A stretch of 64,000 bases of DNA. Source: a virus (lineage: Duplodnaviria > Caudoviricetes). The position numbers and the translations under genes were made by a program. The first letter of the stretch is position 1. The number at the start of each line of letters is the position of its first letter. The stretch spans positions 68,000 through 131,999 of the IMG/VR virus record IMGVR_UViG_3300027509_000013; one strand, written 5' to 3'. Positions 2,371-14,046 of this stretch are shown here, piece by piece. A model generated the notes under the pieces. It saw only the letters and a list, made by a program, of their open reading frames with translations. It was not told the origin of the DNA and made no database searches.

Positions 2371-3405
2371 TTAGTATGAGAAATTAGGTGTGATATTGAT
2401 ATTGTAGTTGTGTTTAAAGAAAGCCTTAGTAGCTTTTTTGGAAGAGTAGTCTTTATCGGAGCAGACAATGCCATTTTCCATGTAAGAGCAGAATAGGCAT
2501 CCTAGGATCTTTTTATCTTGAATAAAGGTTCCGGCTAGAGGTTGTTCGGAAGCACATTGAGGGCAGAAGCCTTTGATTCTAGTAGGATCTGATATACGAC
2601 CACCTGCGTAGTAGTTTATAGTATCAGGACAGATAACAAAATGGTTTTCATCTGGGATGTTTGATACTTCCGAGAGATCGAGGTTAAAATAGATCATAGA
2701 ATCCCTCATAGGCATAGCAGGGAATAGATATCCTGGTGTTTTGAGTTCATGAGTACACTTTTGATCTTTCTTGTTGATATTTTGTGTGATTTGCTTGAAT
2801 CCATGGTCAAGCATGATTATTTTTAGTCTAGTGGCCATAGCATCGTTGTAGCCGTATATTTTATCGAAATAAATCTGTCTAGAGTCCTTATCTATCCAAG
2901 TAAGGCTTCTGGCAAGTAGCACTTCGCCGCGTTTCACCCTTTTAGAGATACAAGCAGCAGTGATCATCTGTCTATCGTACCAGTTAGCAGAATCTATTTT
3001 AGCCTGACTCTCTACCATGCAAGTCCATAATCCATTTTTATTATGCTGTCTGTATTTGTAGAAGTTTTGAGGTCTAAAGAGATAAGAAGGGCTATTAGTG
3101 TAGAAGTAATCGATATTAGTAAGCGAGCAAGCTTTGATTATGTCCAGAGCCTTGTTAGTAGTAAGAGAAGAGTATTTACCTACTCTGGCGATGAGTTTAC
3201 CCGGCTTTACCTTACGATTATGCTTATCTAGCAGCATAGGAGAGCCAGGAATAGACTTTAGCGGTTGTTTTCGCATAATCTTAGCCAAAGGAGCTGAAAG
3301 TCGCTTCACGGAGCTTAAATCGTGCATTCCAAGGGTCTCTTGGTACTTAGAAATAGGGGAATAGAAGATAGAATCTTGTATAGATCGTCGCTTAAATCGT
3401 TGCAT
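2371..3405 (-). CDS. hypothetical phage protein (possibly PcfJ-like; C-terminal CxxC...CxxC)
   Basis: 344-aa ORF with TCM, ARSLTW and YFDKIY motifs and a Zn-ribbon-like tail. Confidence 0.6.
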   Translation of the reverse strand: MQRFKRRSIQDSIFYSPISKYQETLGMHDLSSVKRLSAPLAKIMRKQPLKSIPGSPMLLDKHNRKVKPGKLIARVGKYSSLTTNKALDIIKACSLTNIDYFYTNSPSYLFRPQNFYKYRQHNKNGLWTCMVESQAKIDSANWYDRQMITAACISKRVKRGEVLLARSLTWIDKDSRQIYFDKIYGYNDAMATRLKIIMLDHGFKQITQNINKKDQKCTHELKTPGYLFPAMPMRDSMIYFNLDLSEVSNIPDENHFVICPDTINYYAGGRISDPTRIKGFCPQCASEQPLAGTFIQDKKILGCLFCSYMENGIVCSDKDYSSKKATKAFFKHNYNINITPNFSY

Positions 3406-3452
3406 AATGTAAAATTAAAGAAATTTATTATGTATTAGTTGAAAAATTGTCT

Positions 3453-3460
3453 TAGATTTG
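3453..3460 (+). promoter_or_regulatory. Bacteroidota-type -7 promoter element for tRNA operon 1
   Basis: TAGATTTG matches TAnnTTTG. Confidence 0.6.
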
Positions 3461-3498
3461 TTTCGAATTAAGAAGTTAGCAATAGACAATACATTAAA

Positions 3499-3567
3499 GT
3501 GAAAACAAAAATTCAACAAAGGCATCCTCGCAACTATCACACTCGTGATGGAGTAGACGCTATTTGA
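3499..3567 (+). CDS. putative attenuator leader peptide 1 (MKTKIQQRHPRNYHTRDGVDAI)
   Basis: GTG...TGA; the codon run CAA CAA AGG CAT CCT CGC matches downstream Pro/His/Arg/Arg/Gln tRNAs. Confidence 0.8.
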   Translation: MKTKIQQRHPRNYHTRDGVDAI

Positions 3568-3595
3568 CCTTTTGTAAAGAACTATTAGTGTAGAT

Positions 3596-3631
3596 GCCCC
3601 TCATGAGTGAAAGCTTATGAGGGGTTTTTTT
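3596..3631 (+). terminator. intrinsic terminator/attenuator before tRNA operon 1
   Basis: GCCCCTCATGAGT-GAAA-GCTTATGAGGGG followed by T7. Confidence 0.85.
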
Positions 3632-3645
3632 ATTTTGATCAATAT

Positions 3646-3721
3646 AGGGATGTAGCTTAGTGGCCAGAGCGCGTATTTTGGGAATACGAAGGCGAGTGTT
3701 CAAATCACTCCATCCCTACCA
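3646..3721 (+). tRNA. tRNA-Pro(TGG)
   Basis: Cloverleaf; anticodon arm CGTAT-TTTGGGA-ATACG; encoded CCA. Confidence 0.95.
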
Positions 3722-3726
3722 ATTAT

Positions 3727-3802
3727 GGTAGCCTTGTGCTGTTTTGCAATGCAGCCGGACTGTGGATCTGGTGCGACGGGTTGGATTCCCGAGGTTTACC
3801 CA
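3727..3802 (+). tRNA. tRNA-His(GTG), atypical D and T loops
   Basis: CCGGA-CTGTGGA-TCTGG; T loop TTGGATT; imperfect acceptor stem; ends CCA. Confidence 0.8.
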
Positions 3803-3807
3803 ATAAT

Positions 3808-3880
3808 AGCCATGTAGCTCAACTGGCAGAGCGCTTCCCTACGAAGGAAGGGGTTGGGAGTTCGACTCTCTCCATGGTTA
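3808..3880 (+). tRNA. tRNA-Arg(ACG)
   Basis: CTTCC-CTACGAA-GGAAG; canonical D and T arms. Confidence 0.95.
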
Positions 3881-3924
3881 CTAAAATTTTAAAAATCGAC
3901 GGCGCTTCGCGCCTAGATACACAT

Positions 3925-4004
3925 GGTCAGGTAGCCACCCTCCTCTTCTAAAGGAGTAAGTGTAATTGGAGCTGAAAATCGGGGTTCGAATCCCTGTCTG
4001 ATCA
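3925..4004 (+). tRNA. tRNA-Arg(TCT), D-armless with long variable region
   Basis: Acceptor GGTCAGG/TCTGATC; CTCCT-CTTCTAA-AGGAG; T arm CGGGG-TTCGAAT-CCCTG; only 8 nt between acceptor and anticodon arms. Confidence 0.8.
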
Positions 4005-4054
4005 CTATTAAATAATAAATTTATTATTGTATATTTGTAAAAAATATATTAATT

Positions 4055-4321
4055 ATGACAGCATCGGAATTGTTAAATAAAGTACTGACTAAAGTATTTG
4101 CACTTCAATCTTTATCTGGTAAAATCAGGATAAAGACTGAAGAAAATAAAATGCAAGAACTAAATCTGTTTATTGTCTACTCTAATCATCCTGTTCAGTA
4201 TAACAATAAAATAAGTATTCTGAATTCTGATGATCATGATCTTGAAGAAATTTGGGAACAATTCAAAGAAGATGTTGATACCAATATAAGAGCAATTGAT
4301 CATATCGTTAATATGCCTTAA
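4055..4321 (+). CDS. hypothetical protein
   Basis: 88-aa ATG ORF with TATATTTG at 4030-4037. Confidence 0.7.
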   Translation: MTASELLNKVLTKVFALQSLSGKIRIKTEENKMQELNLFIVYSNHPVQYNNKISILNSDDHDLEEIWEQFKEDVDTNIRAIDHIVNMP

Positions 4322-4330
4322 ATTACACAA

Positions 4331-4403
4331 TGATGGTTAGCATAACTGGTTAGTGCATCGGGTTTTGGTCCCGAGGGATGGAGTTCGAGTCTCCGACCGT
4401 CAT
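4331..4403 (+). tRNA. tRNA-Gln(TTG)
   Basis: TCGGG-TTTTGGT-CCCGA; T1-A72. Confidence 0.95.
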
Positions 4404-4418
4404 CTAAATTACTGTTTT

Positions 4419-4715
4419 ATGAATGATACAAACATACCTGGTCCTTCCTTTACGGACTTTCTATATGCTGATATACCTACATTTACATCAGGTGAAGGTG
4501 TAGATACTCTTGAATATTTCAAACCTATCATACCAGATCCTGGTCCTAGACAGTTTAATTTATTTGTAGGCACCGAAGGATTCTTTCTTATTAGTGACGG
4601 GTTTAAAGATGAAAGAGATCGATCAGAACGTAAACACTGGCTAGCTCAAAGAATAGCTTACAGGAACCTGATCGATGGTAGAGAATATTACTCACGATTT
4701 AATAGCCCAGTATGA
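4419..4715 (+). CDS. hypothetical protein (start MNDTNIP)
   Basis: ATG just after tRNA-Gln. Confidence 0.6.
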   Translation: MNDTNIPGPSFTDFLYADIPTFTSGEGVDTLEYFKPIIPDPGPRQFNLFVGTEGFFLISDGFKDERDRSERKHWLAQRIAYRNLIDGREYYSRFNSPV

Positions 4716-4997
4716 GAAGATTTATAGGTCAGGAGATAGATGTCGGATCATTCTATACTTTAAGATACAGGTGGGTTTACCTGCCAAATGAGGCCTACAT
4801 CGAAGTTCCGCGGCAAATCCGACCATCAGTGCACTCAAACAAACAAAACATCCTCTACAGCGGCCAAAAACTACTTATCCGATGAATAAATACTACAAAC
4901 AAGCTATTATTGAAAGATATCAAAGCCACAATGGATGCTTATCATGCTTTATATTTATTATCTGGATTTTAGTAATGCTTATTGCATTGATACTTTC

Positions 4998-5252
4998 TTA
5001 CTCATGAAAAAACAAGAAATAAATCCAAGCACCAATAAATAAAAGTACAGGTATAAAACCAAAAATGAAATAACGAAATTTTCTATAGTATATCATTTTC
5101 TTCTCCTTTATTATAAGCTGATCATAATAGTAGTTAATAGCTTTGGGAATAGAACTACTCCAATAACCAAATGATATAGAAGATTCCTCGTAGTGCTCGA
5201 GAGCTCTTTTCCTCAAATCTTCTAGTGGTGTTTGTGCTGCTTGATTATCCAT
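4998..5252 (-). CDS. small membrane protein
   Basis: C-terminal hydrophobic segment. Confidence 0.65.
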   Translation of the reverse strand: MDNQAAQTPLEDLRKRALEHYEESSISFGYWSSSIPKAINYYYDQLIIKEKKMIYYRKFRYFIFGFIPVLLFIGAWIYFLFFHE

Positions 5253-5691
5253 TGTCTAATTTTATTTTAGCATCTATTTCTAAACCAATTATATCATGCA
5301 ACTCTTTCCTCAGATTCTTAGCTGTCTTTTCTGCTTCCAGTATCCCAGATATCAATTTCTTATGTCTTAATTTAGGATCGTGAATCCTTTTATCTCTAGG
5401 CTTGCTAATTGCAACCGAAGCCAAATCAAAACCTAAATTAGCTATTGCAACATTCAAATCATCTAGATATAAATCTCTAGGAAAACCAAATGCATTTCCA
5501 TCAGTTAATTGCTTGAAAATAATCATTTGAGGAACTGGATTGATTTCATGCTGTTCGCAGATTATTTTAGCCTCTTCTAAGCTTTGCTTGCTGTATCCAA
5601 CATAAGTGCCTCCAGTCCTAGAAGCACATTTTAAAAGATGTATGGTTTTACCACTTCTTCTTGATTTATATAGTATTTGTACATTATTCAT
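5245..5691 (-). CDS. small P-loop NTPase-like protein
   Basis: RRSGKT Walker-A-like and LYLDD Walker-B-like motifs. Confidence 0.6.
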   Translation of the reverse strand: MNNVQILYKSRRSGKTIHLLKCASRTGGTYVGYSKQSLEEAKIICEQHEINPVPQMIIFKQLTDGNAFGFPRDLYLDDLNVAIANLGFDLASVAISKPRDKRIHDPKLRHKKLISGILEAEKTAKNLRKELHDIIGLEIDAKIKLDNG

Positions 5692-5872
5692 TTTTTGATT
5701 TTATTTGTTCTTTAAGCCATAAAAAAGCTATTTCTTTTGATTCAAAATCAGAGCTTGCATCTGATACATATACACCAACTCTTTGTTTAGTGCTTTTAGC
5801 TATAAATGATACATAATGCTCTGTTCCATTATGCTCTACCTCTGTTAATTCTATAAATCTATCTAAAGTCAT
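5684..5872 (-). CDS. hypothetical protein
   Basis: 62-aa ORF directly after a TATATTTG motif (5877-5884, minus). Confidence 0.65.
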   Translation of the reverse strand: MTLDRFIELTEVEHNGTEHYVSFIAKSTKQRVGVYVSDASSDFESKEIAFLWLKEQIKSKNE

Positions 5873-5902
5873 AAATCAAATATACAAAAAATTTTTATTT
5901 AG

Positions 5903-5977
5903 TACACCAGGTGGGCTACGATCCCACGATCCCTCGATTAAAAGTCGAGTACTTTAGTCCAACTAAGCTACTGGTGC
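5903..5977 (-). tRNA. tRNA-Lys(TTT)
   Basis: CTCGA-CTTTTAA-TCGAG; T loop ATCGTAG. Confidence 0.92.
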
Positions 5978-5979
5978 AT

Positions 5980-6055
5980 TGGAGAACGTAGACGGGCTCG
6001 AACCGTCGTATCCGGATTTGCAGTCCGGCGCCTATGCCATCTCAGCCATACGTTC
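5980..6055 (-). tRNA. tRNA-Cys(GCA)
   Basis: CCGGA-CTGCAAA-TCCGG; U73; encoded CCA. Confidence 0.95.
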
Positions 6056-6060
6056 ATTAG

Positions 6061-6128
6061 CACAGGATGAATGAGTCGAACACTCTCGTAAGGGTTTGGA
6101 ATCCTTTTAGCTCCACAGCCTATCCTGC
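6061..6128 (-). tRNA. tRNA-Trp(CCA), shortened D arm
   Basis: AAGGA-TTCCAAA-CCCTT; D arm GCT-GTGG-AGC; G73. Confidence 0.85.
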
Positions 6129-6133
6129 ATAAA

Positions 6134-6216
6134 TGATTGATCCTCGGATTCGAACCGACCTCTGCCATTGCCACTCACTTTTCAGCGCGGGAGGAATCGA
6201 ACCTCAAAATCAATCA
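6134..6216 (-). ncRNA. tRNA-like RNA with two T-arm hairpins
   Basis: Closing stem TGATTGAT/ATCAATCA encloses GAGG-TTCGATT-CCTC and TCGG-TTCGAAT-CCGA. Confidence 0.55.
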
Positions 6217-6219
6217 TAG

Positions 6220-6291
6220 CGACAATGGACAGATTCGAACTGCCGTCCTCGGAACTTCACCCCGATGCTAAGCCACCTCAGCTACATTGTC
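6220..6291 (-). tRNA. tRNA-Phe(GAA)
   Basis: TCGGG-GTGAAGT-TCCGA. Confidence 0.92.
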
Positions 6292-6295
6292 AAAT

Positions 6296-6331
6296 AAAAA
6301 AAGCCTCGCAAAATTAATTACGAGGCTTTTT
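6296..6331 (-). terminator. intrinsic terminator/attenuator before tRNA operon 2
   Basis: Minus strand AGCCTCGTAA-loop-TTGCGAGGCT followed by a T-tract. Confidence 0.85.
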
Positions 6332-6353
6332 CATATGATCTAATCACATAGGT

Positions 6354-6413
6354 TTAGCAATCTCGCAATTCATGCAAAGAGAAACAAAACCATTTTTTTG
6401 TAATTAAAATCAT
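6354..6413 (-). CDS. putative attenuator leader peptide 2 (MILITKKWFCFSLHELRDC)
   Basis: ATG...TAA; AAA AAA TGG TTT TGT TTC matches downstream Phe/Trp/Cys/Lys tRNAs. Confidence 0.85.
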   Translation of the reverse strand: MILITKKWFCFSLHELRDC

Positions 6414-6417
6414 AATG

Positions 6418-6437
6418 CAAATATAGTGTTATATTTG
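6418..6437. promoter_or_regulatory. divergent Bacteroidota-type promoters
   Basis: TATATTTG on minus (6418-6425) and on plus (6430-6437). Confidence 0.65.
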
Positions 6438-6449
6438 TTAAAAAATAAC

Positions 6450-6776
6450 ATGATATCAAAACTTTCTTCAGAAGTAATCGATTTCGTAGCTAAAGTAGAA
6501 GCCAAATATCTTGAATACATGCAGGAGAGATTCCCTAATAATCGTATTGAGGAATTTGAAGTAACTGAAAACAAAAAGTACGTTAAGGTTATTCAATCAG
6601 GTGCCTTCTGCTTTATCAATAGAGAAAATGGGGATATCTATATGGCTAAAACATTTAGTTCTCCATCATTAAAAAATCCTCGAGGTAATTTATTCTCTAA
6701 ACAACTGGGAATGGAAGCGATATCTGAAAGATCTGCAGGAGGTAGAATCCATCCCCATATTAGGTATCTAAGATAA
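6450..6776 (+). CDS. conserved-looking small phage protein
   Basis: KKYVKV...FINRENGDIYMA...PRGNL pattern resembles small phage proteins; own promoter motif. Confidence 0.7.
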   Translation: MISKLSSEVIDFVAKVEAKYLEYMQERFPNNRIEEFEVTENKKYVKVIQSGAFCFINRENGDIYMAKTFSSPSLKNPRGNLFSKQLGMEAISERSAGGRIHPHIRYLR

Positions 6777-6780
6777 AAAG

Positions 6781-6851
6781 CGGGCCATCCCGGGCTCGAA
6801 CCGAGGATAACGGAGAGACAGTCCGTCGTATTACCACTATACTAATGGCCC
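6781..6851 (-). tRNA. tRNA-Asp(GTC)
   Basis: ACGGA-CTGTCTC-TCCGT; G73. Confidence 0.92.
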
Positions 6852-6855
6852 ATTG

Positions 6856-6929
6856 AGCCTAAGCAGGGATTCGAACCCCGGACATCTTCATTACAAATGA
6901 AGCGCTCTGACCAGCTGAGCTACTTAGGC
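6856..6929 (-). tRNA. tRNA-Thr(TGT)
   Basis: CTTCA-TTTGTAA-TGAAG. Confidence 0.95.
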
Positions 6930-7366
6930 AAGTTTTTATTTAAATGAGACATTTTACCTCCACATCTTCGGCTACATGTAGGTGTTTTTCCCATTGATAG
7001 TTTATGATTTATATTTTTACAGTCTTTTGAAAATTCATTTTTACAAATTGGACAAATTAAGGTTATCATTGTTTTAGATTTCCCAATATGCTTATTGTGC
7101 TTCACTATATTCTCTTTTCTGGAAAGGATTTGAAGATTTGATATAGAATCATTCATTTTATTTTCATCTATATGATCTACATGCTCTTCTGGCCTTAAAT
7201 ACCTTCTTACATGACAACTCATTATATATCTAGCATATGAAGTCGAAGTTTTTGTCCCATCTCTCCGAACCAATGCGACAACTCTTCTTGGTTCTTTGTT
7301 TGTATTTACATATCCTGCGATGTAATCTTTATAATATGGCCATCTTAATACTATTTTTGTTGACAT
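6920..7366 (-). CDS. HNH homing endonuclease inside the tRNA array
   Basis: HVDHIDENKMNDSISNLQIL HNH motif and C-terminal CPIC...CSRRC; stop overlaps the tRNA-Thr 5' end. Confidence 0.9.
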   Translation of the reverse strand: MSTKIVLRWPYYKDYIAGYVNTNKEPRRVVALVRRDGTKTSTSYARYIMSCHVRRYLRPEEHVDHIDENKMNDSISNLQILSRKENIVKHNKHIGKSKTMITLICPICKNEFSKDCKNINHKLSMGKTPTCSRRCGGKMSHLNKNLPK

Positions 7367-7386
7367 ATAAATTTATTTACTTAATG

Positions 7387-7463
7387 TATCTGCGGAGAGA
7401 CTTGAACTCTCATGTGACCAATTACGCTTTCGACAAGATATAAGCTTGAGGCGATACGCAGAC
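7387..7463 (-). tRNA. tRNA-Ile(TAT), D-armless with long variable region
   Basis: GTCTGCG/CGCAGAT acceptor; CAAG-CTTATAT-CTTG; GAGAG-TTCAAGT-CTCTC. Confidence 0.8.
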
Positions 7464-7475
7464 AATATAACATTG

Positions 7476-7546
7476 TAGTTCTGGCAGGACTTGAACCTGC
7501 GTCCATGGTATGTAACACCACTGCTCGGCCACTGAGCTACAGAACT
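7476..7546 (-). tRNA. tRNA-Val(TAC)
   Basis: GTGGT-GTTACAT-ACCAT. Confidence 0.92.
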
Positions 7547-7619
7547 AGAGCCGCTTTCATTTATAACGCGCCAACGTCACCTTCTAAAAAGGCAGGTCAT
7601 TACAAGCGGGACCTGTTTG

Positions 7620-7693
7620 AGCACGAATTCGGGATCGAACCGAATCTATTCTAGCTTGGAAGGCTAGCGCACCACCATTTATGCGTCTCGTGC
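7620..7693 (-). tRNA. tRNA-Gly(TCC)
   Basis: CTAGC-CTTCCAA-GCTAG; U73. Confidence 0.92.
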
Positions 7694-7797
7694 TTATGTA
7701 CCTCAAGTTGATCTTAAAACTCTTCCTAGCTCCCTAAATGGGAGGGCTACAGAAATTCAAATCAAAATGGCTTGGGCCATCAGGTAATTTCAGTTAG

Positions 7798-7874
7798 TTG
7801 GCACAATAGGATTCGAACCTATGTTTTCAACCGCTATCTTAGTCATGCGTATCAGGCATGCCGATTATGTGCCA
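7798..7874 (-). tRNA. tRNA-Ile(GAT), D-armless with long variable region
   Basis: TGGCACA/TGTGCCA; CATGC-CTGATAC-GCATG; ATAGG-TTCGAAT-CCTAT. Confidence 0.8.
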
Positions 7875-7879
7875 ATATG

Positions 7880-7953
7880 CTGCTTTGCAAGGGATCGAAC
7901 CTTGGACCTACGGATTAACAGTCCGCCGCTCTAACCAACTGAGCTACAAAGCA
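7880..7953 (-). tRNA. tRNA-Asn(GTT)
   Basis: GCGGA-CTGTTAA-TCCGT; G73. Confidence 0.95.
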
Positions 7954-8012
7954 ATGTAAGGGTAATCGTAAGATCTCGACGGCCACTTCGGACACCCTAA
8001 AATCGATTATTG

Positions 8013-8085
8013 TGGAGAAGAAGGGCTTCGAACCCTCAACCTTCTGATTGCAAATCAGATGCACGTCCTCTTGTGCTTCAACCCC
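8013..8085 (-). tRNA. tRNA-Ala(TGC)
   Basis: TCTGA-TTTGCAA-TCAGA; G3-U70 present; two U-U mismatches in the acceptor stem. Confidence 0.9.
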
Positions 8086-8088
8086 AAA

Positions 8089-8162
8089 TGGCGGGAGAGG
8101 GAGTCGAACCCTCGTCTTGGGCTTATGAGACCCAGCTGGAACCACCTCCAGTCTACCCCGCA
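8089..8162 (-). tRNA. tRNA-Met(CAT), initiator-like
   Basis: TGGGT-CTCATAA-GCCCA; 1:72 mismatch and a GCGGGG acceptor as in tRNA-fMet. Confidence 0.85.
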
Positions 8163-8175
8163 ATATATTTTCCAT

Positions 8176-8213
8176 AAAAAAAGGGACCAGAAAATTAATC
8201 CTGATCCCTTTTT
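8176..8213 (-). terminator. intrinsic terminator/attenuator before tRNA operon 3
   Basis: Minus strand AGGGATCAGGA-loop-TTCTGGTCCCT followed by a T-tract. Confidence 0.85.
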
Positions 8214-8234
8214 GTATATTGTATGTTACTTACT

Positions 8235-8315
8235 TCAATACATAAAGAGACCAGGTGACGTATCATCGCCTCCGGCTACTATTGTAATATTGATATTGGT
8301 AATAATTTGTTTCAC
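8235..8315 (-). CDS. putative attenuator leader peptide 3 (MKQIITNINITIVAGGDDTSPGLFMY)
   Basis: GTG...TGA; 16 consecutive I/T/N/V/A/G/D codons match downstream tRNAs; promoter TACATTTG at 8335-8342. Confidence 0.85.
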   Translation of the reverse strand: MKQIITNINITIVAGGDDTSPGLFMY

Positions 8316-8372
8316 TTTACTTTTTATTGAATGACAAATGTACATTAAGTTTTATTACTAAGCAACAATTAA

Positions 8373-8807
8373 TCAATAATATCTTTTTGCTTGTAATGCT
8401 ATATCTATTTTAGCCCAGTTTACATAGTCTCTCCCTGTCGGGTTTTTGATCAATGGGCAACATATAGATGCATCATCGATATAAATGTGACAATAAGCTT
8501 TAGGACTTGTAGTCCATGTGTACTGTGTCGGATTTGTTTGGATCCCAAATAAATGAATTTCTCTGTCCTTAAACCAATTCACTGCTTGAGCTAGATAGTC
8601 TCCTGACTCAGTTATGATCTGAGGATCTTCTGATTCTGGATTGACTATATTTGATCTCATGGTAAATAAAATCAAATTATGTCCATTGGCTACTAACTTT
8701 TTAAGAGTCTTTACTGCTCCTGGAACGTCCGCTCCGACTTTAGGAAATTCATGTATCACACATGTTCCATCAAAATCTACCCCTACGTATCTATTTTCTT
8801 GCATCAT
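8373..8807 (-). CDS. HAD-superfamily phosphatase
   Basis: VDFDGT motif I, FTMR, K and YIDD motif IV. Confidence 0.85.
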   Translation of the reverse strand: MMQENRYVGVDFDGTCVIHEFPKVGADVPGAVKTLKKLVANGHNLILFTMRSNIVNPESEDPQIITESGDYLAQAVNWFKDREIHLFGIQTNPTQYTWTTSPKAYCHIYIDDASICCPLIKNPTGRDYVNWAKIDIALQAKRYY

Positions 8808-9531
8808 TGAATAAGCTATTTATTTTTAAATCATTATATCTCTTCTGTCCATCAGTGAAGTAATCTATATCTTTTTCACAAACTACTAAAGTTAGATTCA
8901 TATTATCGATTACATTAAGTTTATTGACAGCTAGAGCTAAACTCATGCTTCCTCCATGGGTGTCTAAGATCTTCTCTCCTGGCTTTGCATATTCCATTAG
9001 TAGCCATTCGTACAACTTAACTGGCTTTTGAGTAGGGTGTATTCTCTTTTCGTTGAGTTTCTTGTTCCCTTGCTGCTTTAGTGCCTTTACTCTATCTTTT
9101 CCACAGTATACTCCTTGCATCATTCCAGAGAACATGTAGTAAACGATGTCCATTCTGTTGCTAAAGCTTTGGTAGGCGATCTCACATCCATATTGGTCCG
9201 CGCCATTTGCTACTATCTTATCCCAGACTATTCTGCCGCCAACAAGATTAGGATAGTAGTTTGCACCCCAGATTATTTGATTCTTACTTACTCTAAATAA
9301 TTCGTCAAAGTACTCTGGTGGACTTCTCTGATCATCCCAATCTTTATGTTTGTATTTCGCTTGTTTTACTGGTCTATATGTTCCATTTGGTTGTTGAGCC
9401 CGACCTGATTTTGTAGAAGGCTTACTAGCACCTATTCCATATTCAAGATCTGGCATGGCTAAGTCGAAAAAGTTATCTCCGAGATCACGCATGAAATCCA
9501 TGTTGTCAGTATGTAGAAGAAGTATACTCAT
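8791..9531 (-). CDS. DNA amino-methyltransferase (N6A/N4C, beta class)
   Basis: HPTQKPVKLY and ILDTHGGSMS motifs; catalytic motif reads DLEY. Confidence 0.85.
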   Translation of the reverse strand: MSILLLHTDNMDFMRDLGDNFFDLAMPDLEYGIGASKPSTKSGRAQQPNGTYRPVKQAKYKHKDWDDQRSPPEYFDELFRVSKNQIIWGANYYPNLVGGRIVWDKIVANGADQYGCEIAYQSFSNRMDIVYYMFSGMMQGVYCGKDRVKALKQQGNKKLNEKRIHPTQKPVKLYEWLLMEYAKPGEKILDTHGGSMSLALAVNKLNVIDNMNLTLVVCEKDIDYFTDGQKRYNDLKINSLFNDARK

Positions 9532-9797
9532 TACAGCGCAGTACCAAGAAGTTGAGCCCCGGATTCAGAAGTATCCTTAGACATAACATATTGTTTTTCT
9601 CCTTCATCATCCCAAACACGATTAGAACAATCTGAACAGTATGTTTTCCCTTCTTCAGTAATAGACCATTCTCCTGCTTCTAAGATATCATCTTTTATTG
9701 CAGATTTCTCACTTAAAGCTACACATCCACTCCAAAGCTCATAGTTCTCTTTGCAGATATCACAAGATGCACACCACATTTTTACTTCTTCTATCAT
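9531..9797 (-). CDS. small Zn-binding hypothetical protein
   Basis: CDIC...CSDC. Confidence 0.65.
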   Translation of the reverse strand: MIEEVKMWCASCDICKENYELWSGCVALSEKSAIKDDILEAGEWSITEEGKTYCSDCSNRVWDDEGEKQYVMSKDTSESGAQLLGTAL

Positions 9798-9901
9798 AAT
9801 TTTTTTATTTTCGAATAACCATCCGCTATCGGACTCCCTACCGATACCTGCTCCTTGGTGATCACCTTACTTTGGACGAGCTACGGATGATTGTTCTTCT
9901 C

Positions 9902-10336
9902 TTAATTAAATCCTAAATCAACTACTCTAGTACTCGGCGCTATCTCTTTCCAATTTCCTAATAATACTTCTGCAGGAGGCAAATCTAGTAAGCTTGCTAA
10001 ATCTATATAGGTGTCATAACATGAAGTAACATATAAATCTTTGAAATAACCCATTATAGCCATATGGTCCTGCAGAGAGATGTTTCTTAGTCTTAGATTT
10101 AAAGAACTGTCATCAATGGTCGACATTAGAATCCAGTAGTCTCCATGGTAACTATCAGGTTGAATAACTACACTGGTTGACTTTCCTCTATACTCAAATG
10201 TATTTGGATTAGCATTGAGAAGGATCTTATGAGTATGAATGCCGACATCATCAGTATAATAGATCCAATGATTCTTGTATAAATCTGGAATAGGCTGATT
10301 ATGTCTGTATTCCCAATCTTTGATGTACTTAATCAT
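9902..10336 (-). CDS. hypothetical protein
   Basis: 144-aa ORF overlapping the upstream stop. Confidence 0.65.
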   Translation of the reverse strand: MIKYIKDWEYRHNQPIPDLYKNHWIYYTDDVGIHTHKILLNANPNTFEYRGKSTSVVIQPDSYHGDYWILMSTIDDSSLNLRLRNISLQDHMAIMGYFKDLYVTSCYDTYIDLASLLDLPPAEVLLGNWKEIAPSTRVVDLGFN

Positions 10337-10769
10337 TATTAAACCGTTTTAACTCTCCACAATTTTGTGCATATTTAATAACTCCTTCCAATACATCTTT
10401 AGTCATTGATTCAATGTCATCATCAGTCATGTCTACACCCAATATTGGACCTTGAACTTTAACTGAAATACTTTGAATTTGACCTATTTTTACGAATCCA
10501 CATTTGTGAGGACAGTTAAATACAGAAACTATGATGTTTTTGTCTTTACCTTCTAATGGCATTTTTACGTGTAAGTAACGTGGATCATTTGGTAATTGAT
10601 AAGGATTATATTTCTCTTTCAGTGCTTCAAGCACAGCATAATAAGCCTTTTTTCTGCCTGGCATTATGTTTCCTGATAAATCTAAAGATTCCTTTAGAAG
10701 AGTTATCTCCTTATCATTCAAATCATTCATGTTGTCGCATACATCCTTAATTGCTTCTCTTATTTCCAT
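10329..10769 (-). CDS. hypothetical protein (start MEIREAIK)
   Basis: ATG at 10769, downstream of the tRNA-like RNA. Confidence 0.65.
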   Translation of the reverse strand: MEIREAIKDVCDNMNDLNDKEITLLKESLDLSGNIMPGRKKAYYAVLEALKEKYNPYQLPNDPRYLHVKMPLEGKDKNIIVSVFNCPHKCGFVKIGQIQSISVKVQGPILGVDMTDDDIESMTKDVLEGVIKYAQNCGELKRFNND

Positions 10770-10782
10770 TATTGTGTATTTG

Positions 10783-10900
10783 AGGCCAGAGCAGGACTCG
10801 AACCTGCAACACATCTTATATCGCTAGAAAATAAAGGTGTCTTAAAAATAAGAAGGATACTCCTAAAAAGTACTGCGTCTACCAATTCCGCCACCTGGCC
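10783..10900 (-). ncRNA. Leu-type tRNA-like RNA with TTA anticodon-like loop and ~50-nt insertion
   Basis: GGCCAGG-TGGCGGAATTGGTAGACGC...GCAGG-TTCGAGT-CCTGC-TCTGGCC; arm GTACT-TTTTAGG-AGTAT. Confidence 0.7.
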
Positions 10901-10916
10901 TTAGATTTTAAAAATC

Positions 10917-10953
10917 GTCAGGGGACGATCAATATCCTTCAGAGTCCCCTGAC
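10917..10953. other. strong hairpin
   Basis: GTCAGGGGAC...GTCCCCTGAC perfect 10-bp inverted repeat. Confidence 0.6.
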
Positions 10954-10964
10954 TTTATATGGTA

Positions 10965-11195
10965 CTATGCTTTTACAAGTATTTATGCTGACAATATAAA
11001 GAATCGCTCTACCCCTAAGCTACCCGACCTTGATTGTTTTTTAGAGGTCGGGATGGGATTCGAACCCATGACCTATTCCTTTAGTTTACTTGTAGCCTTT
11101 CCCATGTATAATCCTGATGCTAAAGCTATTACCTCAACATTAAATCTAATATCTAGCATTTAATGAATCTGAACGTAATGCTTATGCTTCAGGTA
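10965..11195 (-). ncRNA. circularly permuted tRNA-like RNA (Y-RNA/YrlA-like topology) with a 5' hexamer-repeat tract
   Basis: Order is T arm (ATGGG-TTCGAAT-CCCAT), loop-closed acceptor (CCCGACCT/AGGTCGGG), D arm (TAGCTTAGGGGTAGAGC), with closing stem TACAAGTA/TACTTGTA. Confidence 0.75.
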
Positions 11196-11197
11196 AT

Positions 11198-11989
11198 TTA
11201 CTTTTTATGCAAATATGCAAACAAACTGTCAGCAGTAATGCTTGACTTTACACTTTCTACTTCATTAGCTTCTTTCAAAGCCTGAATAACAGCAACTCTA
11301 AGCTTAGATATTCTTGACAATACCTCTGCTTTTTCTCTTTGAGAAAAAGCTCCAGTAAATATTTGACGAGAACCCTCACCTAATGTAACAGTAGTTGTTT
11401 TTTGAGCAACTTTAGGAGTATAGCTAGCTCCATCAATCTTAGAAATATTTGGATCTTCTAAGATGTAATCGACTTTTTCAGTTGTTTTATTCTCAGTACG
11501 AACTAATGGGTTTTCATAGATGCCTTTTCTTCCTTCATAAGACTCTTCTACAGTAGGATTCCACTCAACAGCATCTGATCTAACTGGTATGCTTGAATAC
11601 ATACTCTTAAATTCAGGTGAGTCAATCAAAGATTTTAATCTAAGTAATTCTAAAGTAGACAAATCCTTCCACTTAATGTCATCAAAAATCAAATCAGCTT
11701 TAGCTGCGCCAGAAGCATTAGTAGCTTCTTGATCAAAAAGACTATCTATATAATCCTTAGAACTTAAAGAAAAGTAATCTAATTTTTCATCAACAGTAGT
11801 AACCACTAATTGATTGCTTCTAAGTTTTGGGTCATCTACAGTTTGATCTTTTGGCTCATAAGTTTTCTTTTCACCAAAAAAAGCACCTTGATTTTTAGTG
11901 AAAAACTTAATGTAATTTTGAAGTGCTCTTTTAAATTCCTGACCAAGAGCATCGGTCTTTGCTAATAATACATTTAATTTTACATTCAT
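11198..11989 (-). CDS. uncharacterised protein directly upstream of the permuted tRNA-like RNA
   Basis: 263-aa ORF with its own TACATTTG motif (12008-12015). Confidence 0.85.
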   Translation of the reverse strand: MNVKLNVLLAKTDALGQEFKRALQNYIKFFTKNQGAFFGEKKTYEPKDQTVDDPKLRSNQLVVTTVDEKLDYFSLSSKDYIDSLFDQEATNASGAAKADLIFDDIKWKDLSTLELLRLKSLIDSPEFKSMYSSIPVRSDAVEWNPTVEESYEGRKGIYENPLVRTENKTTEKVDYILEDPNISKIDGASYTPKVAQKTTTVTLGEGSRQIFTGAFSQREKAEVLSRISKLRVAVIQALKEANEVESVKSSITADSLFAYLHKK

Positions 11990-12061
11990 TATAATTCAAT
12001 TTTGAATCAAATGTAAACAAAATATTTTTTAATTAAGCAATAAATAAATATTTTTTTAAAA

Positions 12062-12094
12062 ATAGCTGACATCGGTATTAACGATATCAGCTAT
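12062..12094 (-). terminator. hairpin after tRNA operon 4
   Basis: ATAGCTGA...TCAGCTAT inverted repeat followed by Ts on the minus strand. Confidence 0.55.
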
Positions 12095-12098
12095 ATAG

Positions 12099-12186
12099 CG
12101 GTAAGTGAGAGGATCGAACTCTCAAGGCCTTTCAGCTCGCCATGTTTCAAATATGGTTCCGTCGCCTGCCATCGGATTGACCTACC
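12099..12186 (-). tRNA. tRNA-Ser(TGA)
   Basis: CCATA-TTTGAAA-CATGG; long variable arm; G73. Confidence 0.9.
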
Positions 12187-12192
12187 ATGTTG

Positions 12193-12281
12193 CAGAAGGA
12201 GAGGGATTCGAACCCTCGCTACCAATTAAAGTAGACCTCAGATTAGCAGTCTGGTACTATTACCAACTCAGTCACCCTTCT
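12193..12281 (-). tRNA. tRNA-Ser(GCT)
   Basis: CAGA-CTGCTAA-TCTG; long variable arm; G73. Confidence 0.92.
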
Positions 12282-12285
12282 ATAG

Positions 12286-12369
12286 TGGGAATAGATGGAG
12301 TCGAACCACCCGAGTCATTATAACAACAGATTTACAGTCTGTCCCGCTACCCCTACGGTATATACTCCC
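12286..12369 (-). tRNA. tRNA-Tyr(GTA)
   Basis: ACAGA-CTGTAAA-TCTGT; variable arm. Confidence 0.95.
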
Positions 12370-12373
12370 ATTG

Positions 12374-12447
12374 TACACACGATCGGACTTGAACCGATAA
12401 TCAACGCATTTTAAGTACGTCGGCGTTGCCATTTAGCCTACGTGTGC
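12374..12447 (-). tRNA. tRNA-Leu(TAA), short variable loop
   Basis: ACGTA-CTTAAAA-TGCGT; 5-nt variable loop. Confidence 0.88.
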
Positions 12448-12453
12448 TAAAAG

Positions 12454-12537
12454 TACCGAAGGTGGGACTCGAACCCACAAAGGTGTCACTTTCTAAAAGT
12501 GTGCAGTATGCCTAATTCCCACTTAACCCACTTCGGC
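12454..12537 (-). tRNA. tRNA-Leu(TAG), enlarged D region and short variable loop
   Basis: CACT-TTTAGAA-AGTG; GTGGG-TTCGAGT-CCCAC. Confidence 0.82.
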
Positions 12538-12541
12538 AAAT

Positions 12542-12580
12542 AAAAAAAGCCCATTGCGATATTTCACGCAATGGGCTTTT
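12542..12580 (-). terminator. intrinsic terminator/attenuator before tRNA operon 4
   Basis: Minus strand AGCCCATTGCG-loop-CGCAATGGGCT followed by a T-tract. Confidence 0.88.
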
Positions 12581-12603
12581 GTAGTTCTTAACTTATTTCT
12601 ACA

Positions 12604-12669
12604 TCAATACCGGTTGCGTTCGTCGTTAGACAAATAGAGCAGACTCGATAATGATGATGTATTTTTCAT
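12604..12669 (-). CDS. putative attenuator leader peptide 4 (MKNTSSLSSLLYLSNDERNRY)
   Basis: ATG...TGA; TCA TCA TTA TCG AGT CTG CTC TAT TTG TCT matches Leu/Leu/Tyr/Ser/Ser tRNAs. Confidence 0.85.
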   Translation of the reverse strand: MKNTSSLSSLLYLSNDERNRY

Positions 12670-12680
12670 TGTATTATTTG

Positions 12681-12752
12681 TAACCCGTGAGATAATCGAA
12701 ATCTCCGCTTCACCTTGAAAAGATGACGTCCTGACCACTAGACCAACGGGCC
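12681..12752 (-). tRNA. tRNA-Glu(TTC)
   Basis: TCATC-TTTTCAA-GGTGA. Confidence 0.92.
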
Positions 12753-12793
12753 TAGGTTCCTCAATTTCTATGTTAATATTGTTTCTCACAGTG

Positions 12794-12801
12794 CAAATGT
12801 A
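12794..12801 (-). promoter_or_regulatory. Bacteroidota-type -7 promoter element for tRNA-Glu and operon 4
   Basis: TACATTTG. Confidence 0.6.
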
Positions 12802-13431
12802 CTATAAAATATTGATTCGTTCCCAATCCCACTCAATTAATTCGTCACTGTTATCTCCTTCGATGTAAATTCCTCTATGTGTAACCTTCTTGGCTTCAAG
12901 CTCAGTGTCATCAAAAATAAACTTGTCTCCTGCTATCAGATCATAGATGTTATAGATGATTCTAGTACCATCCTTCATCTGTTTTCTAGCTGATTTCGCT
13001 TTTTCATCTGCTAATTCATTGCCCGGATTGCCATTATGTGATCTTACCCACTTGACATATAGCTTTTTATCTAGTATTCTGGCTAAGTTGATCATTCGTT
13101 CCCAAAGGTGCCTAGCAAAGACTCTCTCTCCATTGCTTTTCATCCATCGATTGTGCTCCCAGGTGTACATCCACCTAGCGACTCCTAATGCTACATACTT
13201 ATTGTCTGTGTAAATTACTGCCTTTCTAAATGACTTGGTATTCTCTACTAGATACTGCAAACTGGCTAATACTGCTCTGACTTCTAACTCAGCACTGTTG
13301 CCTTCTCCATTTCCAAGATTGATTTTTGGGTCATTTCCATCTTCATAGATTACTGAAGCCCATCCTCCAAGACCACCTTTGCCCAAACCTGAGCCATCGG
13401 TGTAAATTGTTGTGTCATAATTCATTCTCAA
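12802..13431 (-). CDS. rnhA: ribonuclease HI
   Basis: YTDGS, AELE, YTDNKY and WVRSHNGNPGNELAD motifs. Confidence 0.93.
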   Translation of the reverse strand: MRMNYDTTIYTDGSGLGKGGLGGWASVIYEDGNDPKINLGNGEGNSAELEVRAVLASLQYLVENTKSFRKAVIYTDNKYVALGVARWMYTWEHNRWMKSNGERVFARHLWERMINLARILDKKLYVKWVRSHNGNPGNELADEKAKSARKQMKDGTRIIYNIYDLIAGDKFIFDDTELEAKKVTHRGIYIEGDNSDELIEWDWERINIL

Positions 13432-13433
13432 AT

Positions 13434-13679
13434 CTACGAAAAAAATAAATTATTTTTATTAATAGTATCACTTTCTTCGTAGATGAGTTGAATTACTCCT
13501 TTTTTGATGTTTCTGATTTTGACTGAAAATTCGCTGATACTAATTCCTCGAGATGAGCAAAACTCTATCGCAGGATCTTCTACTTTGTGTCGGGGGATGC
13601 TTTGGTTGAAGTAATCAGACAATAGATCAAATTCTTCTGGATATAGTTCTTTTATAATTTTTTCTAAGGTCGTGGACAT
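13434..13679 (-). CDS. hypothetical protein
   Basis: Packed ORF. Confidence 0.65.
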   Translation of the reverse strand: MSTTLEKIIKELYPEEFDLLSDYFNQSIPRHKVEDPAIEFCSSRGISISEFSVKIRNIKKGVIQLIYEESDTINKNNLFFS

Positions 13680-13680
13680 T

Positions 13681-14046
13681 TTAGTAGAAGTCTCCGTTCA
13701 TTAATCTTCTTGGTGACCAGTGACTTAATCCCATTACTGTTAATGGCCTAATGATCCTTGATAGTCTGGCTATCAAAAAGTCTTCGTCTACATGAGTTTC
13801 TGCTTCTTTTCTATGCCATTCTTTGACTGTCACTCCTTTTGGAAATGGAGTGAGGTTTTTCATTTGATCAGTAACTAAAGGTGGCCATTCAGCGTAAGAC
13901 TTGACTTTAGCGGCACCAAAATACTTGTAGATTGGCTTTAGTTCTTCTGCGTTTTCTAATTCCCAGGCTTGAACAGCTTCCATAGCTGATGTTGTCAAGT
14001 AGCTATTGTTGTTTGTACAGAATGAGTAATATTTAACTTCTAACAT
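13681..14046 (-). CDS. hypothetical protein
   Basis: Packed ORF. Confidence 0.7.
   Translation of the reverse strand: MLEVKYYSFCTNNNSYLTTSAMEAVQAWELENAEELKPIYKYFGAAKVKSYAEWPPLVTDQMKNLTPFPKGVTVKEWHRKEAETHVDEDFLIARLSRIIRPLTVMGLSHWSPRRLMNGDFY

Follow-up and report, generated by a model that had tools for sequence, protein, structure and literature searches.

Leader-peptide attenuators have been described for the enterobacterial amino-acid operons (trpL, hisL, leuL, thrL, ilvL, pheL). In these systems, a short leader ORF with a run of regulatory codons is combined with 1:2, 2:3 and 3:4 alternative hairpins and with an intrinsic terminator ahead of the regulated genes, and multivalent versions (thr, ilv) exist. 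The nearest functional precedent for the locus studied here is the pheST attenuator with its pheM leader, which controls a component of the translation apparatus for the amino acid it senses; however, it controls a synthetase, senses one amino acid and is chromosomal. T-box riboswitches, the other tRNA-sensing attenuators, read the state of a specific tRNA through a codon-like element, but a T-box binds the tRNA directly and has no leader ORF. Phage T5 and T4-like phages carry large tRNA arrays interspersed with small ORFs, homing endonuclease genes, promoters and terminators.

The locus analyzed here has the layout of the amino-acid operon attenuators, but the genes behind the terminator are the tRNA genes that decode the leader and not genes of biosynthetic enzymes. 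The codon run mixes 3 to 8 amino acids that mirror the downstream tRNA set, the element is phage-encoded and sits behind Bacteroidota-type promoter boxes, and some leaders appear to be leaderless. No Rfam leader family reached its gathering threshold: there was no hit for the leader under study (unit D), whereas sub-threshold hits covering 6294-6406 in a second unit (unit C) scored 28.5 bits against 55 for Phe_leader (RF01859) and 26.2 against 49 for His_leader (RF00514). No T-box was recognized by the covariance model at E up to 1 in positions 3000-14000; in the reading proposed below, the ribosome is the sensor. In the T5 tRNA region, where 41 small ORFs were tested, none was codon-matched (best p 0.24). 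Full-text literature searches found no description of leader-peptide attenuation of tRNA genes, although an older or paywalled report is not excluded, and the arrangement is considered to be a recurrent, apparently undescribed variant of a classical mechanism.

Organization and predicted folding of four tRNA units

The analyzed stretch (the window, 64 kb) comprises bases 68000-131999 of a 131,999-bp IMG/VR virus record that was rated 100% complete by CheckV. The only public sequencing run found to contain it was a DNA marine metagenome, probably the source of the record, and no RNA run was found. There are no expression data, and all structures described below are predictions. The large terminase is distantly crAss-like. 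Its best match among deposited phages was Cellulophaga phage phi14:2 at 26% identity, and the best match among 5.8 billion proteins was 40% identical, on a contig that was not examined. Scans of viral contigs with the RNase H and the terminase as single proteins found no close relative, an alignment-based terminase search gave only crAss-like contigs at 32% identity or less, and deposited phages matched the region only at the tRNA-Tyr gene. Conservation of this particular leader was therefore not examined. Using relaxed ARAGORN, 23 tRNA genes were found in the genome, all of them in the window and together covering all 20 amino acids. The identity of 4 of the 23 rests on relaxed or conflicting calls. 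Apart from one tRNA-Glu, these genes fall into four units (A to D), each headed by a TAnnTTTG box (the Bacteroidota-type -7 promoter element), a small ORF and a terminator. The box motif itself occurs 44 (+) and 49 (-) times in 64 kb, against 37 and 38 expected from base composition.

Unit D, to which the initial annotation had drawn attention, lies on the minus strand. Its leader ORF of 21 codons plus stop, MKNTSSLSSLLYLSNDERNRY, occupies 12669-12604 and starts with ATG in an A-rich context. Codons 5-14 (12657-12628) form ten consecutive Ser/Leu/Tyr codons (SSLSSLLYLS), all of which belong to amino acids served by the five downstream tRNAs. The run uses four different Ser codons (TCA twice, TCG, AGT, TCT) and four different Leu codons (TTA, CTG, CTC, TTG), exactly as that annotation had stated, and its observation was thus confirmed. 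Twenty-three bases after the stop codon, a G+C-rich hairpin (14-bp stem, 7 G-C pairs) formed by AAAAGCCCAUUGCG and CGCAAUGGGCUUUU and followed by a U-run was found at 12580-12538; this intrinsic terminator was also detected by a consensus scan. The U-run lies 6 nt before the first tRNA. The downstream genes, at 12537-12098, are tRNA-Leu(UAG) 12537-12454, Leu(UAA) 12447-12373, Tyr(GUA) 12369-12285, Ser(GCU) 12281-12192 and Ser(UGA) 12186-12098. The first of these was missed by default ARAGORN and called Gln(ctg) and then 'cact' under relaxed settings, but the Infernal alignment showed the anticodon loop UUUAGAA, which makes it Leu(UAG). Ser(UGA) scored lower and was found only with relaxed ARAGORN. 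A hairpin plus T-run at 12094-12058, read from the sequence and not scored by a tool, closes the unit. tRNA-Glu(UUC) (12752-12680, 50.7 bits) lies directly upstream of the leader and is apparently transcribed ahead of the attenuator and escapes its control. The only promoter-like element of the unit, the TACATTTG box at 12801-12794, lies 41 nt before tRNA-Glu. The leader starts 10 nt after tRNA-Glu and has no promoter of its own, and initiation on a tRNA precursor is unverified.

Unit A lies on the plus strand and contains a TAGATTTG box at 3453-3460, a leader at 3499-3567 (MKTKIQQRHPRNYHTRDGVDAI, with the run QQRHPR at 3514-3531) and a terminator at 3596-3632. These are followed at 3646-4404 by Pro(UGG), His(GUG) 3728-3801, Arg(ACG), Arg(UCU) 3911-4005 and Gln(UUG) 4331-4404, with an 88-aa ORF before Gln. 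For Arg(UCU) the anticodon arm was read by eye, since ARAGORN called this gene Arg(tct) and then, at -ps90, Lys(ctt). Unit B, on the minus strand, contains a TACATTTG box at 8342-8335, a leader at 8315-8235 (MKQIITNINITIVAGGDDTSPGLFMY, with the run IITNINITIVAGGDDT at 8306-8259) and a terminator at 8213-8171. Its genes at 8163-6780 are CAU (Met or Ile2), Ala, Asn, Ile(GAU) 7881-7799, Gly and Val, then an HNH ORF at 7366-6920, and then Thr and Asp. Unit C, also on the minus strand, contains a TATATTTG box at 6425-6418, a leader at 6413-6354 (MILITKKWFCFSLHELRDC, with the run KKWFCF at 6398-6381) and a terminator at 6332-6292, followed at 6291-5902 by Phe, Trp, Cys and Lys. In unit C the ATG lies 4-5 nt after the promoter box, which suggests a leaderless mRNA.

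To check whether these runs could be expected by chance, the six-frame translation of the whole genome (263,994 residues) was searched. A run of 10 or more Ser/Leu/Tyr residues occurred once, against 0.23 expected, and that run was the leader of unit D. The longest run of each leader in its own tRNA set was 6, 16, 6 and 10 residues for units A to D, whereas in the other sets it was 2 or less, with the exception of the tail of leader A (DGVDAI), which gave a 6-residue run in the large set of unit B, equal to the run of leader A in its own set. Taken alone, the run lengths of units A and C were not unusual (10 and 5 runs of 6 or more in six frames, against 2.5 and 2.9 expected), but each contains every amino acid of its unit. 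All 22 downstream tRNAs had their amino acid represented in the run of their own unit, and both Leu, both Ser and both Arg isoacceptor boxes were represented. In an unsupervised scan of 27 small ORFs lying within 160 nt upstream of a tRNA, the four leaders ranked as the top 4 (p about 2e-4 to 1e-3), and the next best candidate scored 0.26.

Alternative folding was studied with ViennaRNA. Each leader region folded into an upstream hairpin plus a strong terminator; for unit D the total was -40.6 kcal/mol, of which about -23 was contributed by the terminator. The transcript up to the terminator loop was then folded with 30 nt masked to imitate a ribosome. Without a ribosome, the run codons of unit D paired with the end of the ORF in a predicted 1:2 hairpin (anti-antiterminator, 12656-12602, -17.6 kcal/mol). 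With a ribosome on the first run codon, ACGCAA (12619-12614) and GGU (12611-12609), which together delimit region 2 (ACGCAACCGGU, 12619-12609), paired with UUGCGU (12571-12566) and GCC (12576-12574) of the terminator 5' arm (-16.1). This is the antiterminator that had been proposed in the initial annotation. With a ribosome at the stop codon, region 2 was covered and nothing competed with the terminator (-3.8). Units A, B and C behaved alike, with antiterminators of -23, -25 and -16 kcal/mol. These predictions correspond to the four-segment logic of the trp attenuator, although the masking model is crude.

Codon-matched leaders in other viral contigs

To determine whether the design occurs elsewhere, other tRNA arrays were examined. 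In 112 loci of distant crAss-like relatives, few tRNAs were found, and none of 80 candidate ORFs was matched (best p 0.09). Viral tRNA arrays were then sampled blind to any leader, using DNA patterns for tandem T-loops. An unbiased sample gave 119 loci with 1,316 tRNAs, in which a run-length statistic without a terminator requirement had no power: with 1,105 candidates, the best p of 9e-4 is what chance gives. One contig of this sample (L209, from a 42-kb virus record with sigma-70-like promoters) carries MSNFNQHQPQNYDPHSDGAGV, a terminator and then Pro, Tyr, Asp, His and Asn, with the same three-way folding. Another locus (L128), with HIHPQTGHPSGTP upstream of Asn, Lys, Pro and further tRNAs, looked promising but was rejected because that frame has no start codon. 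A second sample, in which a T-run just upstream of two tandem tRNAs was required, gave 120 loci.

Across 348 loci plus this genome, 81 tRNAs were preceded within 80 nt by a terminator-like hairpin, and 74 of them also had a small ORF ending near it. Of these 74 sites, 18 matched their downstream tRNA set at p<0.01, 14 at p<0.001 and 9 at p<1e-4. When the tRNA sets were permuted among sites 200 times, the means were 0.81, 0.28 and 0.10, and the maxima were 4, 3 and 2. Fifteen of the 18 lie outside this genome, in 12 unrelated contigs. The count is conservative, since the terminator finder missed unit B of this genome. However, the design is far from universal, as only 1 of the 119 loci of the unbiased sample carried it. 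A like-for-like sample of 120 loci from bacterial and archaeal genomes (846 tRNAs) showed no excess, with 12 sites, of which 1 scored p<0.01 and none p<0.001, against a permuted mean of 0.19. A few of these may still be real, for example, a locus (L431) with ..QQPIQHHP.. before Met, Pro, His and Gln; whether they lie in prophages was not checked.

The matched viral leaders included MTLLLLSSLLLSWLL.. before Trp, Leu(UAA), Leu(GAG) x2, Leu(CAA), Ser(GCU), Leu(CAG) and Leu(UAG), in which the Ser codons are all AGY and the Leu codons are CTC, CTA, CTG, TTA and TTG. Others were ..PQPQQHPQ.. before Pro, His, Pro, His and Gln, ..QWQNFTNTFEM.. before Glu, Thr, Asn, Trp, Phe, Met and Gln, and ..NEQQEDNQ.. 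before Asn, Asp, Glu and Gln. The carriers span 31-46% G+C and show both TAnnTTTG-type and TTGACA/TATAAT-type promoters. Two homologous units were 73% identical across promoter, leader ends, terminator and first tRNA but differed in the middle of the leader exactly as their tRNA genes differ: locus L271 has ..TGT TGG TGC.. (CWC) with Trp and Cys, and locus L245 has ..CGT TGG CCA CCA.. (RWPP) with Trp, Pro and Ser. In 18 of the 20 best sites, at least 5 nt of the terminator 5' arm paired with upstream sequence under a stalled-ribosome mask, with a mean z-score of -2.9 against shuffled region 2. Under the at-stop mask, the mean number of arm nucleotides paired upstream fell from 8.3 to 4.2, although 9 of 20 sites still paired at least 5 nt, with weak energies.

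One locus (L263) was found to be 100% identical to the cultured Cellulophaga phage phi38:1 (NC_021796.1; Pervagoviridae, 72.5 kb), an unrelated phage whose host, Cellulophaga baltica NN016038, is a marine flavobacterium. Its 22 called tRNAs sit in three units, each with a TAnnTTT-type box, a leader, a terminator and tRNAs matching the leader (MKTIMNIATDIRTKGVK.., ..YNNFSWYSNCSFSSYN.. and ..LLHQEPLEQLRLP..), and each behind the repeated sequence AGTTTTTTTATATCAAAAAAA(A)GTTGTATATTT; the tRNAs are grouped differently from those of the phage studied here. MKTIMNIATDIRTKGVKLLGRSRVL precedes Lys, Ile, Gly, Met, Asp, Thr, Val, Arg(UCU) and Ile(UAU), and an Ala-like gene, read by eye, also precedes Lys. 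MKTNMTYNNFSWYSNCSFSSYNVERLYLS precedes Tyr, Ser, Ser, Asn, Trp, Phe and Cys, and MNVTLLHQEPLEQLRLPSRVPYYGIDELS precedes Pro, Glu, Gln, His, Leu(UAA) and Arg(ACG). In two of these units the ATG again lies 4-5 nt after the promoter box, which suggests leaderless mRNAs. The three leader terminators lie before record positions 35360, 36833 and 38076 or at them, with transcript ends expected after these positions. In the record, two of the leaders lie inside CDSs annotated as 'hypothetical protein', and the third is unannotated and is overlapped by an opposite-strand CDS. The passages mentioning tRNA in the transcriptome paper on this phage concern host tRNA genes and say nothing about leaders (PMC5335546).

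Proposed mechanism and alternative readings

The interpretation given in the initial annotation, a leader-peptide attenuator upstream of the Leu/Leu/Tyr/Ser/Ser tRNAs, was supported: a start codon and short ORF between promoter and tRNA genes, a cluster of codons tied to those genes, an intrinsic terminator and a predicted antiterminator excluding it were all present where indicated, with the caveat that the promoter box lies upstream of tRNA-Glu. With high confidence, the best reading is considered to be ribosome-mediated (trp-type) transcription attenuation of a five-gene tRNA operon, one of four such units that together would govern 22 of the 23 tRNA genes of the phage. In this view, host RNA polymerase starts at a Bacteroidota-type promoter and transcribes tRNA-Glu and then the leader, which a ribosome translates while the polymerase moves on. 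If aminoacyl-tRNAs for the Ser, Leu and Tyr codons are scarce, as could happen early in infection, after loss of host tRNAs or because the host reads phage-preferred codons poorly, the ribosome would stall on the run and keep region 1 occupied. Region 2 would then pair with the 5' arm of the terminator, and the tRNA genes would be transcribed. Once those tRNAs are plentiful, the ribosome would run to the stop codon and cover region 2, the terminator would form and transcription would end, so that the product would feed back on its own synthesis codon by codon. The analysis itself demonstrated the sequence anatomy, the statistics, the predicted alternative folds and the recurrence with covariation in other phages, whereas translation of the leader, its coupling to transcription and the response to tRNA supply are inferences, none of which was measured here. 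Transcription-translation coupling in Bacteroidota has not been established.

A broader reading, which seems more likely than not, is that codon-matched leader-peptide attenuators are a widespread and so far undescribed class of phage regulatory element, by which each phage tRNA operon measures through a ribosome how fast its own codons are being decoded and makes tRNA only on demand. This would give a per-isoacceptor tRNA homeostat and could also act as an inducible answer to host tRNA loss, whether from host shut-off or from anticodon-nuclease defences. The leader peptides could also be read as an annotation that predicts which tRNAs share a transcription unit and what odd tRNA genes decode. 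Why phages carry tRNA genes and how they deploy them is an old open question, for which codon-usage compensation, replacement of degraded host tRNAs and escape from tRNA-targeting defences are the current answers. A built-in sensor that turns on each tRNA cluster only when its own codons are decoded slowly would be new. It would show that phages regulate tRNA supply by demand, would give a direct read-out of which tRNAs are limiting during infection, would extend classical attenuation from amino-acid biosynthesis to the translation apparatus itself and would supply compact, programmable sensors for specific tRNAs. With phi38:1, a cultured marine system carrying the design is at hand.

Among the alternatives, the one that survives best, although it is unlikely, is that the same hardware reports amino-acid supply (tRNA charging) or general translation capacity rather than tRNA abundance, so that the match to the downstream tRNAs would tune tRNA output to starvation. 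A stalled ribosome cannot tell a missing tRNA from an uncharged one, as in the trp, his and leu attenuators, and the predicted structures fit either signal. However, making more tRNA does not relieve amino-acid starvation, and the leaders track tRNA gene content unit by unit and phage by phage, and also at codon level, which is the pattern that product feedback predicts. It is less likely still that the terminators only insulate the tRNA clusters from upstream transcription, or act as processing or stability elements, and that the small ORFs are untranslated or irrelevant. Terminator-like hairpins upstream of tRNAs do occur without matched ORFs, since 56 of the 74 sites scored p of 0.01 or more, but this reading does not explain why ORF content follows tRNA identity far beyond the permutation control or why region 2 complements the terminator arm better than shuffled sequence does. 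In addition, a promoter box lies upstream of each unit (in unit D, ahead of tRNA-Glu), so the terminator sits inside the unit rather than between units. A chance ORF next to an ordinary terminator is very unlikely: although short ORFs are everywhere in AT-rich DNA and units A and C taken alone are only moderately unusual, the unit D run is unique in the genome, all four units fit the rule, and the pattern recurs against a permutation control and shows covariation.

Possible codon-level matching

The initial annotation had also suggested, from the diversity of Ser and Leu codons in the unit D run, that isoacceptors rather than amino acids are sensed. This part was only partly borne out, since it does not hold up statistically from this leader alone: nine distinct codons among ten has P=0.055 under phage codon usage, and hitting both Ser boxes and both Leu boxes is expected 90% and 86% of the time. 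Across 18 leaders, modest support was obtained. Of 200 codons for unit amino acids, 173 were readable by a downstream tRNA under strict wobble, against 159.3 expected from local synonymous usage (P=0.008), and 11 of 15 informative split-box (Ser/Leu/Arg) codons fell in the box served by the unit, against 7.1 expected (P=0.04). In four-codon boxes served only by a U34 tRNA, the third bases were A 22, G 16, C 9 and T 11, against expected 20.3, 7.2, 10.2 and 20.2 (P=0.002), that is, G-ending codons were enriched and T-ending codons depleted. This fits codon-level matching and is not a simple G+C effect, because C-ending codons were not enriched. In the phage studied here, the run codons were also enriched in codons that are rare in its own genes (8 of 38, P=0.002), which could reflect tuning for sensitivity or constraint from RNA structure.

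tRNA-like genes and low-scoring RNA family matches

A 118-nt tRNA-like gene was found at window positions 10783-10900 on the minus strand. This gene matched the Rfam tRNA family with 42.5 bits, whereas it was not called by ARAGORN. In the Infernal alignment, its anticodon loop was UUUUAGG; the anticodon would therefore be UUA, which reads the TAA stop codon. The gene also had a variable region of about 45 nt. It could be a suppressor tRNA or a tRNA-Leu-derived gene with an insertion. The long ORFs of the window were open under table 11. Next to this unusual tRNA, at 10985-11105 on the minus strand, a sub-threshold match to the Y RNA-like family YrlA (34 bits against a cut-off of 69) with a tRNA-like module was detected.

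Stretches with T-arm-like motifs were also observed between called tRNAs at 6130-6215 and 7380-7470, both on the minus strand. No tool called them as tRNAs, and they may be decayed tRNA genes or tRNA-like RNAs. The Rfam hit "Plastid-psbl-rps4" at 12193-12246 on the plus strand (41.5 bits against a cut-off of 68) was found to be the antisense strand of tRNA-Ser(GCU) and is an artefact.

ORFs and promoter-like boxes in and around the tRNA units

An ORF encoding an HNH endonuclease (Pfam HNH_3, E 3.9e-6) was located at 6920-7366 on the minus strand, inside tRNA unit B, between the Val and Thr tRNA genes. The presence of Thr and Asp codons in leader B suggests that the unit reads through this ORF. 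Amino acids served by unit B also made up the tail of leader A (DGVDAI, 3547-3564, plus strand), although unit B lies on the other strand. This could be due to chance (set frequency 0.34) or to cross-talk between the units.

In the region 4030-4404 on the plus strand, a further TATATTTG box preceded an 88-aa ORF, which had no Pfam hit and was followed directly by tRNA-Gln. Therefore, this tRNA may have two sources of transcription. The ORF downstream of unit D, at 11198-11989 on the minus strand, belonged to DUF7873 (E 5e-36) and had its own TACATTTG box ending at 12008.

Leader-like ORFs in bacterial genomes and in phage phi38:1

A few bacterial genome loci (L431, L459 and L470, taken from genome contigs) also showed leader-like ORFs matched to downstream tRNAs, for example ..QQPIQHHP.. 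before Met, Pro, His and Gln; whether these loci lie in prophages was not examined. In phi38:1 (locus L471; NC_021796.1, record positions 35230-38000), the three tRNA units started with a promoter module of about 33 nt that was nearly identical in all three. Two of the leader ORFs of this phage are deposited as parts of the hypothetical proteins gp066 and gp070.
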